Source: Escherichia coli
GTDB lineage: Bacteria; Pseudomonadota; Gammaproteobacteria; Enterobacterales; Enterobacteriaceae
Length of the DNA: 64,000 nucleotides
Reading direction: 5' to 3' (one strand)
Assembly: GCF_003334785.1 (NCBI RefSeq)
Contig: NZ_QOWV01000001.1
A model generated the notes under the pieces. The model ran no database searches. It worked only from the letters and a program-made list of their open reading frames with translations, and was not told where the DNA came from. Below, one piece after another: positions 1,610-22,840 of this stretch. Every line of letters begins with the position of its first letter. The stretch's first letter is position 1. The position numbers and the translations under genes were made by a program.

Positions 1610-1843
1610 CCTGTATTACTCCATGTATTGCCAAAATCTCTCTCTGTATCTAATTACAGGTAACTGAAAAGAAAGATATTTTTGCACCTCATAATCCGTT
1701 ATTAAACGCGGAAGAGAGACGTGAATTGTTGATGATGAGAAGAAGAAATGATGAGCAGAGTGTCCATATAAAATCCTTTTCTCGCCCGAAAATCCATTCC
1801 AATGATGAGGATCTTCAGGAATACGGCATAAATCCCAATGCCT
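1610..1843 (-). promoter_or_regulatory. pgaA 5' leader / divergent pgaA-ycdT promoter region, AT-rich, multiple GGA motifs on the pgaA strand
   Basis: 586-bp AT-rich gap between divergent pgaA and ycdT; several GGA motifs on the minus strand including one at the SD. The pgaA leader is a known CsrA target (established knowledge); exact extent not determinable from sequence. Confidence 0.5.
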
Positions 1844-2195
1844 TTTTCAAAATAAATTAGGATTAAAATAATTAAATCAGTAAATTCCGATGCATGATTT
1901 CGGATTTTTCGAAAGTCCTGATGAAAGGCTGCGCTACGGCACTCACGGATTTAATTGTTATTCCTAATGTATCTATGAATTAATGTTTTATAAGGATTTT
2001 CTATAACCATTTATAAGTATTTTCAAGCCTGGCTTGTTGCAAACAATGTATAAAGCACTTAGGCAATAATAATTACATTCAGCAACTATCATCATCGGTA
2101 TTGTTTGTGGGCGGAATTTCATATTGACAACAGTACAGTTCTTATATCTATTAATAATAGAAAGGGATCTACAACCTACAGATTGGTGTAGCTTT

Positions 2196-3554
2196 ATGGA
2201 AAAAGACTATTTGAGAATGAGTAGTACTGTATTAGTGAGCTTATTGTTTGGGCTTGCTTTGGTTTTGGTGAATAGTTGGTTTAATCAGCCAGGCGTTGAG
2301 GAAGTTGTTCCACGATCAACCTATCTGATGGTAATGATTGCTTTATTTTTTATCGATACTGTTGCATTTATTTTTATGCAGTTGTATTTCATTTATGACC
2401 GTAGGCAATTTTCAAACTGTGTACTTAGTTTGGCTTTTCTGAGTTGTTTGATTTACTTTGTTATAACCGTCATTATCATTCAGCAAATTATTGAGGAGCG
2501 TTTGACAAGCAGTGTTGTCCAAAATGACATTGCAATCTATTATTTGTTTCGTCAGATGAGTTTGTGCATATTAATATTTCTGGCATTGGTGAATAAAGTT
2601 AGTGAAAACACAAAACAGCGCAATTTATTTTCCAAAAAAATGACTTTGTGCATAAGTTTGTTTTTTGTTTTTGGGGGGCCGATAGTTGCTCACATACTTT
2701 CTAGTCATTATGAGAGCTACAATTTACACATTGCCGAGTTAACCAATGAAAATGGTCAGGTGGTTTGGAAAGCCTCATATGTTACCATAATGATTTTCAT
2801 GTGGTTAACCTTGCTTTCGGTTAATCTATACTTTAATGGTTTACGCTATGATATCTGGAATGGAGTGACGGTGATTGCTTTTTGTGCCGTACTGTACAAT
2901 ATCTCTCTGTTATTTATGAGCAGGTATAGCGTGTCCACTTGGTATATTAGTCGCACTATTGAAGTAGTCAGTAAGTTAACCGTTATGGTAATATTTATGT
3001 GCCATATATTCAGTGCGCTACGAGTAACAAAGAACATTGCACATCGCGATCCCTTAACCAATATATTTAACAGAAATTATTTTTTTAATGAACTGACAGT
3101 TCAATCAGCATCAGCCCAAAAAACGCCTTATTGCGTCATGATTATGGATATCGACCACTTCAAAAAAGTCAACGACACCTGGGGGCATCCGGTTGGCGAT
3201 CAGGTGATAAAAACAGTGGTGAATATCATTGGGAAAAGCATACGACCAGATGACCTTTTAGCGCGCGTCGGCGGCGAAGAGTTTGGCGTCTTGCTGACGG
3301 ACATCGATACTGAACGTGCGAAAGCTTTAGCGGAAAGGATTCGGGAAAATGTTGAGCGTTTAACTGGCGATAATCCTGAATACGCTATACCACAAAAAGT
3401 GACGATTAGTATTGGCGCTGTTGTGACTCAGGAAAATGCGTTAAACCCAAATGAGATCTATCGACTGGCTGATAACGCACTTTACGAGGCGAAAGAGACC
3501 GGGCGTAATAAGGTGGTTGTGAGGGATGTGGTGAATTTTTGTGAGTCACCATAA
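2196..3554 (+). CDS. dgcT: Diguanylate cyclase (GGDEF domain, membrane-anchored) YcdT/DgcT
   Basis: ORF 2124..3554 trimmed to ATG at 2196 (MEKDYLRMSS...), 452 aa; N-terminal hydrophobic segments; GGEEF active-site motif (RVGGEEFGV) near the C-terminus. Confidence 0.9.
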   Translation: MEKDYLRMSSTVLVSLLFGLALVLVNSWFNQPGVEEVVPRSTYLMVMIALFFIDTVAFIFMQLYFIYDRRQFSNCVLSLAFLSCLIYFVITVIIIQQIIEERLTSSVVQNDIAIYYLFRQMSLCILIFLALVNKVSENTKQRNLFSKKMTLCISLFFVFGGPIVAHILSSHYESYNLHIAELTNENGQVVWKASYVTIMIFMWLTLLSVNLYFNGLRYDIWNGVTVIAFCAVLYNISLLFMSRYSVSTWYISRTIEVVSKLTVMVIFMCHIFSALRVTKNIAHRDPLTNIFNRNYFFNELTVQSASAQKTPYCVMIMDIDHFKKVNDTWGHPVGDQVIKTVVNIIGKSIRPDDLLARVGGEEFGVLLTDIDTERAKALAERIRENVERLTGDNPEYAIPQKVTISIGAVVTQENALNPNEIYRLADNALYEAKETGRNKVVVRDVVNFCESP

Positions 3555-6149: not shown

Positions 6150-6280
6150 GGAAGTGATAGGAAGTGACCAGATAATACATATATGTTCTGTACTCTCTTG
6201 CGCATTTTGATTGTTGACTGAGTAACCAGACAGTTGATGTGCACGATTTCCCCTCGCCCTAACAGACGTGGGCGGGGGCA

Positions 6281-6903
6281 CCCGGTGTGTGCAATATACG
6301 AAAAAAAAGCCCGTACTTTCGTACGAGCTCTTCTTTAAATATGGCGGTGAGGGGGGGATTGACTCGCTTCGCTCGCCCTGCGGGCAGCCCGCTCACTGCG
6401 TTCACGGTCTGTCCAACTGGCTGTCGCCAGTTGTCGAACCCCGGTCGGGGCTTCTCATCCCCCCGGTGTGTGCAATATACGAAAAAAAAGCCCGTACTTT
6501 CGTACGAGCTCTTCTTTAAATATGGCGGTGAGGGGGGGATTGACTCGCTTCGCTCGCCCTGCGGGCAGCCCGCTCACTGCGTTCACGGTCTGTCCAACTG
6601 GCTGTCGCCAGTTGTCGAACCCCGGTCGGGGCTTCTCATCCCCCCGGTGTGTGCAATATACGAAAAAAAAGCCCGTACTTTCGTACGAGCTCTTCTTTAA
6701 ATATGGCGGTGAGGGGGGGATTGACTCGCTTCGCTCGCCCTGCGGGCAGCCCGCTCACTGCGTTCACGGTCTGTCCAACTGGCTGTCGCCAGTTGTCGAA
6801 CCCCGGTCGGGGCTTCTCATCCCCCCGGTGTGTGCAATATACGAAAAAAAAGCCCGTACTTTCGTACGAGCTCTTCTTTAAATATGGCGGTGAGGGGGGG
6901 ATT
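6281..6903. repeat. Tandem direct repeat array: three perfect 181-bp units (starts 6281, 6462, 6643) plus a fourth partial unit running into the serX 3' end
   Basis: Identical text recurs with 181-bp period; each unit holds a copy of the last 19 nt of serX (plus strand tggcggtgagggggggatt) and the adjacent hairpin plus A/T-run terminator. Confidence 0.95.
6843..6876 (-). terminator. Rho-independent terminator immediately downstream of serX (copied in each repeat unit)
   Basis: On the tRNA strand: short spacer after CCA, hairpin (gctcgtac gaaa gtacgggc), then a run of 8 T. Confidence 0.75.
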
Positions 6904-6972
6904 CGAACCCCCGATACGTTGCCGTATACACACTTTCCAGGCGTGCTCCTTCAGCCACTCGGACACCTCACC
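6885..6972 (-). tRNA. serX: tRNA-Ser (long variable arm, 88 nt, CCA encoded)
   Basis: Reverse complement reads GGTGAGGTGTCCGAGTGGCTGAAGGAGCACGCCTGGAAAGTGTGTATACGGCAACGTATCGGGGGTTCGAATCCCCCCCTCACCGCCA; GGTTCGAATCC T-arm and GGA anticodon loop context. Confidence 0.93.
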
Positions 6973-11865: not shown

Positions 11866-12516
<651 letters not shown>

Positions 12517-13270
12517 GATGAAACCCCGCTTTTTTTATTGATCGCACACCTGACAGCTGCCTCTAAAATAGAAGCACCAGAAGTACTGACAGATGTTGCA
12601 CTGCTGTGTGTAGTAATAAATCAGCCCTAAATGGGTAAAATATAAAACTAATGGATTACATCTGATTTCAATCTAGCCATTACAAATCTTAAATCAAGTG
12701 TTAAACATGTAACTAAATGTAACTCGTTATATTAAAATGTTAACCTTAAGGTTTTATTAAGTTTAGAAATGATAGAAAAGTTGTACATTTGGTTTTTATT
12801 GCACAATTTTAAAAAATCATACAAATGGTGATAACTTACTAATAATGCATATAAAAAATATTTCGGTGTAGTCCTTTCGTCATGTAAAACGTTCTTGTTT
12901 TTTCTCCACACCTCCGTGGACAATTTTTTACTGCAAAAAGACGAGGTTTGTCACGGCTTGTGCGCAAGACATATCGCAGCAATCAGCGACGGGCAAGAAG
13001 AATGACTGTCTGGTGCTTTTTGATAGCGGAAAGCGGAGATTTAAAAGAAAACAAAATATTTTTTTGCGTAGATAACAGCGTATTTACGTGGGTTTTAATA
13101 CTTTGGTATGAACTAAAAAAGAAAAATACAACGCGCGGGTGAGTTATTAAAAATATTTCCGCAGACATACTTTCCATCGTAACGCAGCGTTAACAAAATA
13201 CAGGTTGCGTTAACAACCAAGTTGAAATGATTTAATTTCTTAAATGTACGACCAGGTCCAGGGTGACAAC
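12517..13270. promoter_or_regulatory. Divergent csgD / csgBAC intergenic control region (754 bp, strongly AT-rich)
   Basis: Long AT-rich gap between divergent start codons; holds the csgD 5'UTR and both promoters (established knowledge). Individual binding sites not mapped here. Confidence 0.85.
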
Positions 13271-13726
13271 ATGAAAAACAAATTGTTATTTATGATGTTA
13301 ACAATACTGGGTGCGCCTGGGATTGCAGCCGCAGCAGGTTATGATTTAGCTAATTCAGAATATAACTTCGCGGTAAATGAATTGAGTAAGTCTTCATTTA
13401 ATCAGGCAGCCATAATTGGTCAAGCTGGGACTAATAATAGTGCTCAGTTACGGCAGGGAGGCTCAAAACTTTTGGCGGTTGTTGCGCAAGAAGGTAGTAG
13501 CAACCGGGCAAAGATTGACCAGACAGGAGATTATAACCTTGCATATATTGATCAGGCGGGCAGTGCCAACGATGCCAGTATTTCGCAAGGTGCTTATGGT
13601 AATACTGCGATGATTATCCAGAAAGGTTCTGGTAATAAAGCAAATATTACACAGTATGGTACTCAAAAAACGGCAATTGTAGTGCAGAGACAGTCGCAAA
13701 TGGCTATTCGCGTGACACAACGTTAA
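13271..13726 (+). CDS. csgB: Minor curlin nucleator CsgB
   Basis: ORF 13244..13726 trimmed to ATG 13271 (MKNKLLFMMLTILGAPGIAAA...), 151 aa; imperfect Q/N/G/S/A-rich repeats. Confidence 0.95.
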   Translation: MKNKLLFMMLTILGAPGIAAAAGYDLANSEYNFAVNELSKSSFNQAAIIGQAGTNNSAQLRQGGSKLLAVVAQEGSSNRAKIDQTGDYNLAYIDQAGSANDASISQGAYGNTAMIIQKGSGNKANITQYGTQKTAIVVQRQSQMAIRVTQR

Positions 13727-22735: not shown

Positions 22736-22840
22736 TGCCTGATGCGCTACGCTTATCAGGCCTACATCGTTCCTGCAATTTATTGATTTTGCAAGACTTT
22801 GTGGGTCGGATAAGGCGTTCACGCCGCATCCGGCAAAAAC
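22736..22840. repeat. REP/BIME-type palindromic units downstream of opgH
   Basis: gcctgatgcgctacgcttatcaggcctac ... cggataaggcgttcacgccgcatccggca: classic REP consensus in opposed orientation. Confidence 0.8.

Follow-up and report, generated by a model that had tools for sequence, protein, structure and literature searches.

How a long stretch of DNA between two divergent curli genes governs both of them, and which of its parts carry that control, is the question raised by the locus described here. The DNA analysed, called the window below, is a stretch of 64,000 nt from Escherichia coli. Within it csgD begins with an ATG at 12516 (minus strand) and csgB with one at 13271 (plus strand), leaving a spacer of 754 bp (12517..13270, assigned to neither strand), exactly the position and length claimed in an earlier note made from the sequence. 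Translation of the flanking ORFs gives CsgD (216 aa, minus strand) and CsgB (151 aa, plus strand), a divergent pair. The spacer is 100% identical to that of strain FORC 064, and it matches E. coli K-12 MG1655 (NC_000913.3 1103197..1103950) at 753 of 754 positions, with the same flanks, orientation, and length, the same offsets of the OmpR D1, MlrA, MqsA, and CsgD motifs, and a leader of 147/148 nt and a match to the Rfam family ES056 that are shared as well. The sole difference, a G at 13033 where K-12 has an A, falls 369 bp upstream of where csgD transcription starts, in the centre, which is not conserved; it is expected to be neutral. (The sequence with the G allele is carried by FORC 064 and many other isolates.) The RefSeq (PGAP) annotation places no gene within the 754 bp in either K-12 MG1655 or FORC 064, and of 5426 complete E. 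coli genomes, 5330 contain the spacer at a coverage of at least 80%. It is thus virtually certain that this is the well-studied csgD/csgB divergent control region of the curli operons csgDEFG and csgBAC, and that it encodes no protein; nothing that contradicts this identification was encountered, and there is nothing unusual or new in the region as such.

With gene boundaries transferred from the FORC 064 annotation, no gene-free spacer in the window is longer than this one, so that the earlier description of it as one of the longest was an understatement; it is followed by ycdU-serX, whose 735 bp are occupied by RtT repeats, and then by pgaA-dgcT (586 bp) and rne-rluC (572 bp). It has been described as 754 bases with 65.5% AT (PMC5745457). 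Its GC content of 0.346, against 0.501 for the window, falls among the lowest 1.5% of 754-bp windows, and the AT-richness claimed for it is real; the claim that it is the most AT-rich part does not strictly hold, since the 754 bp at 1949..2702 have a GC content of 0.325 and place it second. The pgaA-dgcT spacer (1610..2195) is likewise divergent, long, and just as AT-rich (GC 0.340), and it also lies upstream of a biofilm-matrix operon, but its sequence and its regulators are different. Within the csgD–csgB spacer, AT content is highest in the csgD upstream module (12665..12829; GC 0.230).

Base composition of this kind, together with the reported binding of H-NS (PMC12713406, PMC13304067), is also what might be seen if the stretch were not ancestral regulatory DNA but a remnant or boundary of a horizontally acquired, H-NS-silenced island. 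However, the same flanks, orientation, length, and conserved ends recur in 76 loci that run from Escherichia to Buttiauxella and Kosakonia, 99% of complete E. coli genomes have the spacer, and the RefSeq annotation has no mobile-element features within it. Neither insertion scars at the ends of the spacer nor a csg phylogeny at odds with the species tree was seen. On this ortholog distribution a horizontal origin was considered and rejected, and we regard it as exceedingly improbable. The csgD-csgB (agfD-agfB) region of Salmonella enterica is a close counterpart: it has the same architecture and a nearly equal length of 755 bp (PMC6611641, PMC13304067), or 760 bp at a locus of subsp. diarizonae, and it conserves the csgD promoter, OmpR D1, the MlrA site, the leader, and the csgB modules. 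It differs in sequence, with an identity of only about 63% across the spacer and about 38% in the centre; H-NS, moreover, is reported to activate in Salmonella and to repress in E. coli (PMC12713406).

A phylogenetic footprint of orthologous spacers from 75 species shows conservation of both end modules and not of the centre. Before the modules are considered, two other properties of the DNA need to be dealt with, its A/T tracts and its small ORFs. Long A and T tracts suggesting curvature had been proposed in the earlier note. Tracts are indeed present, as 12 homopolymer A/T runs of 5-7 nt, at a density of 15.9/kb versus 4.1/kb in the window. None is longer than 7 nt, and the excess is mostly compositional, because 500 shuffles of the spacer that preserve dinucleotides average 8.0 +/- 2.1 runs, 28 of them reaching 12. 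Fourier analysis of AA/TT over the whole 754 bp gives no region-wide periodicity of 10-11 bp (10.5 bp; z between -0.3 and 1.8), and the idea that the entire spacer is a phased A-tract array was rejected for want of significant helical phasing. What remains of the proposal is a single strong predicted local bend at 12898..12940 (neither strand), made up of T6 at 12898-12903, T6 at 12924-12929, and A5 at 12935-12939. In a wedge model, whose values are approximate, curvature peaks at 12934; no other position in the 64 kb exceeds its 25.4 degrees per turn (window median 6.2), and the mean for the spacer is in the top 5%. This predicted peak is retained only in Escherichia and some Citrobacter. Strong inherent curvature of the region has been reported (PMC12713406, PMC5745457).

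The three small ORFs exist just as the earlier note listed them: ORF1 (12732..12923, minus strand, 63 aa, TTG start), ORF2 (12948..13142, plus strand, 64 aa, TTG start), and ORF3 (12983..13177, minus strand, 64 aa, ATG start). If at least one of them encoded a real small protein, part of the intergenic region would be coding. The frames are open at 63-64 aa in the window, ORF1 and ORF3 are named in some GenBank records of E. coli or Shigella, and the ATG and open frame of ORF3 are retained in four other Escherichia lineages. The name given is only "hypothetical protein", however, and the lengths called vary from 45 to 147 aa. Across the 75 orthologous spacers the ORFs are intact in 0, 1, and 0 cases, respectively. 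For ORF2 the median first stop is at codon 7. Even in other Escherichia species ORF1 and ORF2 meet stops within the first 1-22 codons (codon 6-21 for ORF1), and in Salmonella all three are interrupted. ORF3 also has stops in E. albertii and Citrobacter. Its substitutions are spread evenly over codon positions (e.g. 12/9/12), the codon changes being overwhelmingly non-synonymous (14-23 versus 1-4 synonymous), and the apparent conservation of its N-terminal half comes solely from overlap with the csgB promoter block. ORF1 passes antisense through the MlrA and MqsA sites. None of the three has an NCBIfam match, RefSeq PGAP annotates none of them, and the exact sequence of ORF2 is absent from a collection of 15 billion proteins. 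With frames that are not preserved and no codon-position bias, the three ORFs are judged non-coding, as the note had thought most likely; a coding function was rejected on this non-preservation and is highly unlikely.

The csgD end of the region can be anchored to its transcription start. The start was placed by matching the sequence to previously mapped ends, namely Rfam ES056, primer coordinates, and three published sites, and on this basis it is 12664 (C) or 12663 (A), 147/148 nt upstream of the ATG. The ES056 match begins at 12663 on the minus strand, and the mapped start of Rau 2015 is 1 nt away from the ES056 5' end. Primer CD6R, whose 5' end falls at 12598, is described as ending at +67 of csgD (PMC12388358), which makes +1 position 12664; in addition, the csgD UTR has been given as 147 nt (PMC6061853). 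Alignment to the csgD start, which the earlier note had proposed as a check, thus arrives at 12664/12663 through both ES056 and the primer coordinates. Read from the sequence relative to this start, the core promoter P1 (12670..12697, minus strand) consists of a -10 element TAGATT (12670-12675) with a C just upstream at 12676, a 16-bp spacer, and a -35 element TTGATT (12692-12697). The block 12667-12676 has a conservation of 0.99 across the 75 species. A simple σ70 consensus scan returned two other sites, a count below chance, and missed P1 because P1 matches the consensus at only 8 of 12 positions; the scan was set aside as uninformative for an activator-dependent promoter such as that of csgD. 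Dependence on σS is taken from the literature.

Upstream of P1, several regulator motifs fall at their published offsets. The OmpR activating site D1, GTTACATTTAGTTACA (12708..12723, minus strand, -59..-44), matches GTTACAN4GTTACA without a mismatch, and a review places D1 at -51 of csgD (PMC13304067). (The same GTTACATTTAGTTACA also fits an RstA box and overlaps a CpxR-like half-match.) The palindrome AACCTTAAGGTT (12742..12753, neither strand), an exact match on both strands at -78..-89, also reads as CTTAAGGTT, the motif of a BasR box. It is the MqsA site, and an MqsA palindrome has been described 78 bp upstream of the csgD start (PMC4894380). Farther upstream lies the MlrA palindrome AAAGTTGTACA-N12-TGCACAATTTT (12777..12810, neither strand, -146..-113), with 2 mismatches in 22 specified bases against a chance expectation of 0.00 and with its half-site 12777-12786 conserved at 0.97. 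Both the MlrA consensus and the position -146..-113 reportedly come from Ogasawara 2010. Just upstream of the MlrA site there is a further conserved block, TCATACAAAT (12817..12826, neither strand; 0.88 across 75 species), which is a candidate contact for IHF or another factor; no match to the IHF consensus above chance is found at that position.

Other regulators leave no comparable trace. Consensus scans of the spacer for IHF, CpxR, CRP, Cra, H-NS, and a σS -10 element all gave counts at or below chance, and sites for them are therefore without independent sequence support; of the motifs that the earlier note suggested scanning for, OmpR is perfect, but CpxR, IHF, and RpoS-type -10 elements stay at chance level. 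A scan for RcdA was likewise at or below chance, and there is no exact TTGTNNACA match in the spacer, though RcdA binding has been published. Binding by H-NS, IHF, CpxR, RcsB, CRP, and others is taken here from published reports (PMC12713406, PMC12388358, PMC13304067). The view of the region as a highly integrated regulatory hub is borne out by the OmpR, MlrA, MqsA, and CsgD motifs at their published offsets, and the literature puts it in nearly the same words (PMC12713406, PMC5745457, PMC13304067).

Downstream of the start, the csgD leader (12517..12664, minus strand, 147/148 nt) bears out the claim of a long 5' UTR targeted by several sRNAs. Its 5' end matches the 92-nt Rfam family RF02752, "ES056 sRNA" (12572..12663, minus strand), over model positions 1-92 of 92 with a cmscan score of 119.7 bits (gathering score 43, E = 1e-22), as does K-12; because the match coincides with the 5' part of the leader, it is here a leader fragment. 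Complementarity was measured as the longest contiguous run between the leader and each sRNA, using sRNA sequences from K-12, and it falls in a single block, 12577..12614 (minus strand), with OmrA/OmrB at 12577-12595, McaS at 12597-12612, and RprA at 12602-12614. The runs are 19 nt for OmrB (-79..-61 from the AUG), 16 nt, perfect, for McaS (-96..-81), and 13 nt, perfect, for RprA (-98..-86), and in no case does any of 300 shuffled versions of the sRNA reach the same length. (Pairing whole sRNA molecules with the leader in RNAduplex was dropped; it gave unrealistically long duplexes and, for OmrA/B, a weak contrast with shuffles.) The pairing block is also the most conserved part of the leader (0.88-0.97). 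Overlapping it is a stem-loop (12546..12596, minus strand), with an outer stem that pairs +69..+75 with +113..+119 and an inner hairpin at +90..+106, and it corresponds to stem-loop II of PMC6061853, a study that describes the action of seven sRNAs plus Hfq/RNase E on the csgD leader. In an RNAalifold consensus over 18 genera, 11 of the 18 consensus pairs show compensatory double changes, and the single-sequence fold has z = -2.9. A Shine-Dalgarno sequence GCGGGG, read from the sequence, lies 8-13 nt upstream of the ATG (12524..12529, minus strand), within a block (12517-12527) conserved at 0.95. The rpoS and flhDC leaders (named in PMC4676190) are likewise long 5' leaders of master regulators, in which multiple Hfq-dependent sRNAs pair far upstream of the ribosome-binding site. 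Their genes and sequences differ from csgD, and the likeness is one of mechanism only, with no homology implied.

At the csgB end, a conserved block, AATACTTTGG ... AAAAATAC (13097..13135, plus strand; 0.75-0.84 across 75 species), lies upstream of the promoter and is followed by CGGGTGAGTTA (13136..13146, plus strand, -135..-125 from the csgB ATG; conserved at 0.92). The latter is an exact match to CGGGKGAKNKA, the consensus of the CsgD box, where 0.08 matches would be expected by chance. Next comes GACATACT (13164..13171, plus strand), at least 90% conserved in non-Escherichia species, in which CATACT (13165-13170) is the probable csgB -10 element; the position of the csgB transcription start was not found in the literature searched, and the assignment is therefore left to rest on conservation. 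Two conserved copies of GCGTTAACAA follow (13187-13196 and 13207-13216, together 13187..13216, plus strand, as read from the sequence), the first of them inside a CpxR-like match, GTAACGCAGCGTTAA (13179-13193), whose 2 mismatches put it at about the chance rate. The ribosome-binding region CCAGGTCCAGGGTGACAAC (13252..13270, plus strand; 0.94-0.95) completes the module. Hairpins at 12905-12920 (plus strand) and 13203-13218 were considered as terminators and rejected; both are weak (-6 to -7 kcal/mol), and the first is not conserved.

Between these two ends lies a central spacer (12830..13096, neither strand) whose sequence is poorly conserved and whose length is conserved. Outside Escherichia its identity to the window is 0.28-0.45; within Escherichia it is 0.66-0.72, compared with 0.64-0.68 at csgD 4-fold sites, and in other clades the centre diverges at the 4-fold-site rate or faster. 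Yet 72 species, belonging to over 15 genera, have a centre of 267-282 bp (sd 3.5), and the whole spacer measures 733-802 bp in 74 of the 76 loci. Between the csgD -10 element and the CsgD box there are 462-476 bp in 54 species from many genera, the distances having two modes, 466 and 472-474 bp. Because there are two modes and the span exceeds one turn, strict helical phasing of the promoters is unsupported (a Rayleigh-type statistic on these distances is invalid for related sequences). What is modestly new in this analysis is that the centre turns over at the synonymous rate while the promoter-to-promoter distance stays fixed; a limited search of the literature found no statement that this spacing is conserved.

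Two readings of this pattern have to be weighed. The central ~270 bp may be constrained in length, acting as a "ruler" and not through sequence-specific sites; we put this forward tentatively. Alternatively, only the two ends may be functional, with 12830-13096 being neutral filler that is AT-rich through GC-to-AT mutation bias and constant in length by historical accident; we consider this possible, though doubtful. Neutrality accords with the divergence of the centre, at the csgD 4-fold-site rate in Escherichia and at that rate or faster elsewhere, with its low identity in other genera, with the loss of the bend at 12934 beyond Escherichia and some Citrobacter, and with a GC content (0.38) that is unremarkable for non-coding DNA and higher than that of the csgD upstream module (0.23). 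Against it, the sd of 3.5 bp across 72 species persists although substitutions are saturated, and only 2 gap columns separate Escherichia species at ~30% divergence. Footprints have been placed within the segment in Salmonella, for H-NS at -69..-339 and for OmpR D3-D6 at -86..-267 (PMC13304067), and there is a small conserved island, TTTGTCAC, at 12947-12954.

Taken together with published work, these results indicate how the region operates. In the csgD module (12517-12829), transcription starts at 12664/12663 from a promoter that is weak and depends on activators; judging from the motifs, it would be switched on by OmpR, at the perfect direct repeat centred around -51, and by MlrA, at -146..-113, while, according to the literature, IHF, H-NS, and further regulators may occupy the 77%-AT DNA around the OmpR and MlrA sites. 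The leader so produced folds into the conserved stem-loop and exposes the conserved 38-nt block, where Hfq-dependent sRNAs (OmrA/B, McaS, RprA, and others) could pair, leading to a block of translation or to RNase E cleavage, the cleavage being taken from the literature. In the csgB module (13097-13270), CsgD would then bind the CGGGTGAGTTA box beside a weak core promoter and turn on csgBAC. The AT-rich central spacer of ~270 bp, with its predicted bend, may set a fixed distance between the two modules, and it may also serve as a low-specificity binding surface for H-NS, OmpR, and IHF.

This region is among the most densely regulated DNA in E. coli, and it decides the production of curli fibres and the commitment to biofilm. 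For the strain itself, near-identity to K-12 means that it has an intact, standard curli switch, and no more. If the conserved length of the centre does act as a ruler, the divergent promoters would be coupled through nucleoprotein geometry. H-NS might provide it as a filament or bridge; alternatively, IHF might bend the DNA into a loop in which the csgD-proximal OmpR and MlrA act on csgB. Curli expression is bimodal, on or off, and coupling of this sort could be its basis. The one forward-looking point is a promoter distance that is conserved across Enterobacteriaceae without conservation of the sequence in between, which offers a handle on the communication between the two promoters and on how bimodal curli expression arises.

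[quoted passage not shown] Translation of the open reading frames places CsgD (216 aa) on the minus strand at 11866..12516 and CsgB on the plus strand in the frame from 13271, where another ATG lies upstream in frame at 13244; csgD is followed by csgEFG, and csgB by csgA and csgC. Since csgD and csgB flank 12517..13270, this gap is the csgD-csgB spacer, 754 bp in length. When the FORC 064 annotation is mapped onto the window and the spacers are ranked, it is not simply one of the longest, as had been claimed, but the longest, followed by ycdU-serX (735 bp), pgaA-dgcT (586 bp), and rne-rluC (572 bp). By megablast, it is matched in 5,372 of 5,426 complete E. coli genomes and at least 80% covered in 5,330 of them, nearly always as a single copy per chromosome. 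The same 754 bp are found in K-12 MG1655 and FORC 064, and the RefSeq annotation of these two strains has no feature inside them. The sequence is identical to that of FORC 064 and differs from K-12 only at 13033, which is G in the window and FORC 064 and A in K-12 and other Escherichia species; this position, 369 bp upstream of the csgD start, belongs to the central part that is not conserved. (Aside from an IS1 insertion of 769 extra bp that FORC 064 has between rluC and rne, at ~54190, and that the window is without, the two are 99.96-100% identical over 64 kb. In the ycdU-serX spacer, 6150-6884, a 181-bp unit is repeated perfectly in tandem 3.4 times at 6281-6903, one unit more than in FORC 064, which brings the spacer to nearly the length of the csg spacer; Rfam RtT matches fall in three of these units, at 6342-6478, 6523-6659, and 6704-6840 on the minus strand, downstream of tRNA-Ser(GGA) at 6885-6972.)

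The region has been described as having strong inherent curvature and 65.5% AT, with 26 of its 32 mapped protein sites lying no more than 200 bp from the csgD start (PMC5745457), and two further papers agree with that account (PMC12713406, PMC13304067). In the window, the GC content of the spacer is 0.346 against 0.501 overall, within the lowest 1.5% of 754-bp windows. The description "most AT-rich" is a slight overstatement because 1949..2702 (0.325) and the pgaA-dgcT spacer (0.340) are lower still. The latter (1610-2195, 586 bp) is a divergent spacer upstream of another biofilm-matrix operon, and 1949-2702, the lowest-GC 754-bp window of the whole sequence, overlaps it. Within the csg spacer AT-richness is uneven: the csgD upstream module (12665..12829) has a GC content of 0.230, a value kept in orthologues (0.245 +/- 0.022), and the leader, centre, and csgB module lie at 0.36-0.39. 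The A/T tracts from which curvature had been suggested are present: homopolymers of 5-7 nt occur 12 times, at four times the density of the window. Shuffled versions of the spacer with dinucleotides preserved have 8.0 +/- 2.1 of them, and 28 of 500 reach 12. An approximate wedge-model calculation puts the mean curvature of the spacer in the top 5% and predicts that, over the whole 64 kb, the DNA bends most strongly at 12934, amid T6/T6/A5 tracts; the peak is shared by other Escherichia and by some Citrobacter but is not widespread. There is no AA/TT signal at the helical period across the whole spacer. At this predicted peak, in mid-spacer, the plus strand (12905-12929) has a weak hairpin resembling a terminator, TCCACACCTCCGTGGA with a T6 run after it (-6.3 kcal/mol, z = -3.7), which is not conserved outside Escherichia.

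The only significant Rfam match in the spacer is ES056 (RF02752; 12663..12572, minus strand), with a score of 119.7 bits (gathering score 43). In its original description, ES056 occupies 1102475-1102566 of K-12 (version 2) on the minus strand, its 5' end 1 nt away from a mapped start site (PMC4676190); in window terms these coordinates lie 56-147 nt upstream of the csgD ATG, and ES056 is therefore the 5' part of the csgD leader. (Other matches above gathering score in the window are the rne 5' UTR element, 53713-54049, minus; SraB sRNA, 55910-56078, plus; the PyrC leader, 31929-31978, minus; and ES036/CssrF, 22758-22800, minus.) An anchor independent of ES056 comes from a probe spanning -335 to +67 of the csgD start, with the primer GCACTGCTGTGTGTAGTAAT at its +67 end (PMC12388358); the 5' end of this primer is at 12598, giving +1 at 12664. 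Together with the published leader length of 147 nt (PMC6061853), these positions bear out the long csgD 5' UTR that had been proposed and set the csgD transcription start at 12664 or 12663. Upstream on the minus strand lie a -10 element, TAGATT (12670-12675, with a C just before it), and, across a 16-bp spacer, a -35 element, TTGATT (12692-12697). Because this pair matches the consensus at only 8 of 12 positions, a consensus scan missed it; the block 12667-12676 shows 99% conservation across 75 species. At +4..+9 of the csgD mRNA there is an AUG-UAA "start-stop" (12656-12661, minus strand), seen in Escherichia only.

On its own, the 151-nt leader folds more stably than its shuffles (z = -2.9). 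In an RNAalifold consensus from 18 genera there are 18 predicted pairs, of which 11 show compensatory double changes, and in the inner hairpin (12559-12575) up to 8 of the 18 sequences are altered on both sides of a pair; the predicted stem-loop is the counterpart of the conserved stem-loop II in PMC6061853. K-12 OmrA, OmrB, McaS, and RprA were each searched for their longest unbroken complementarity to the leader, with 300 shuffles for each sRNA. As the earlier note had proposed, the leader appears to be an sRNA target: OmrB (19 nt, -79..-61 from the AUG), McaS (16-nt perfect match, -96..-81), and RprA (13-nt perfect match, -98..-86) show complementarity reached by 0 of 300 shuffles in each case, and their targets make up 12577-12614, where the leader is best conserved.

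The spacer was also scanned with published consensus patterns, and counts were compared with first-order Markov randomisations. Four sites stand well above chance and at their published offsets: OmpR D1 (GTTACATTTAGTTACA, -59..-44 of the csgD start; placed at -51 in a review, PMC13304067), the MlrA palindrome (-146..-113; chance expectation 0.00), the MqsA palindrome (AACCTTAAGGTT, beginning at -78; reported 78 bp upstream of the start, PMC4894380), and the CsgD box (CGGGTGAGTTA, 13136-13146, 125-135 bp upstream of the csgB ATG). The postulated regulatory hub is thereby recovered at the motif level for these regulators, OmpR included, but not for IHF, CpxR, CRP, Cra, H-NS, or the sigma-S -10 element, whose patterns occur in the spacer at or below chance and which rest on the literature rather than on any claim from the spacer sequence.

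We conclude that the three small ORFs in the spacer are chance ORFs in AT-rich DNA, in keeping with the earlier view that they are most likely non-coding. They are present exactly where first reported, at 12732..12923 (minus), 12948..13142 (plus), and 12983..13177 (minus); projected through the alignment of 75 orthologous spacers, they are intact in 0, 1, and 0, respectively, and no NCBIfam model matches any of them. Even in other Escherichia species, the first two are interrupted by stops within their first 1-22 codons. The third remains open in four Escherichia lineages; a coding reading of it was rejected given that the half of it that is conserved, the N-terminal one, falls on the csgB promoter block, that its substitutions are even over codon positions (e.g. 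12/9/12), with 14-23 codons non-synonymous versus 1-4 synonymous, and that it has stops in E. albertii, Citrobacter, and Salmonella. Some submitters label two of the three "hypothetical protein" (45-147 aa), in E. coli/Shigella only.

A single scan of species-representative genomes with CsgD gave 80 loci, spanning Escherichia, Citrobacter, Salmonella, Enterobacter, Lelliottia, Leclercia, Trabulsiella, Phytobacter, Kosakonia, Atlantibacter, Buttiauxella, and others. In 76 of them csgD and csgB are both present and divergent, with a spacer GC of 0.32-0.43 and a length of 733-802 bp in 74 and 586-589 bp in two Kosakonia species. The short spacers belong only to K. pseudosacchari (L083) and K. quasisacchari (L084), in which simple pattern searches found neither MlrA half-sites nor a CsgD box. 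In the alignment, conserved blocks span 12517-12826 (ribosome-binding site, leader, core promoter, OmpR sites, MlrA site, and the TCATACAAAT block) and, on the csgB side, 13097-13216 and 13252-13270, which include an upstream block and the CsgD box, along with a conserved GACATACT, GCGTTAACAA in two copies, and the ribosome-binding site of csgB. A mapped csgB start was not found in the literature searched; conservation points to CATACT (13165-13170) as the probable csgB -10 element. The GCGTTAACAA copies, 20 bp apart (13187-13196 and 13207-13216) and both conserved across genera, lie between this element and the csgB ribosome-binding site, the second inside an imperfect palindrome, GGTTGCGTTAACAACC (13203-13218).

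The centre (12830-13096) has only 28-45% identity to the window outside Escherichia. Within Escherichia, identity is 66-72%, versus 64-68% at four-fold degenerate csgD sites, and in other clades the centre has diverged as much as such sites or more. Across 72 species (loci L005-L082 of the scan) the centre measures 267-282 bp (sd 3.5), and in 54 species the csgD -10 element and the CsgD box are 462-476 bp apart, a distance taken independently of the alignment; variation in total spacer length arises mostly in the two leaders. This combination of synonymous-rate turnover and tightly conserved length was not found stated in a limited literature search. It hints at a geometric constraint on the promoter-to-promoter distance, with the centre as a "ruler", a tentative reading that we think less likely than not; low-specificity H-NS/OmpR binding plus few indels could also account for the combination.

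Overall, the evidence fits the established model of csgD/csgB regulation. In this model, a weak, activator-dependent csgD promoter would integrate OmpR, MlrA, and nucleoid-protein inputs within an extremely AT-rich 165 bp, and the long structured csgD leader would integrate sRNA inputs. CsgD would then activate csgBAC by way of its box (13136-13146), which adjoins a weak core promoter.
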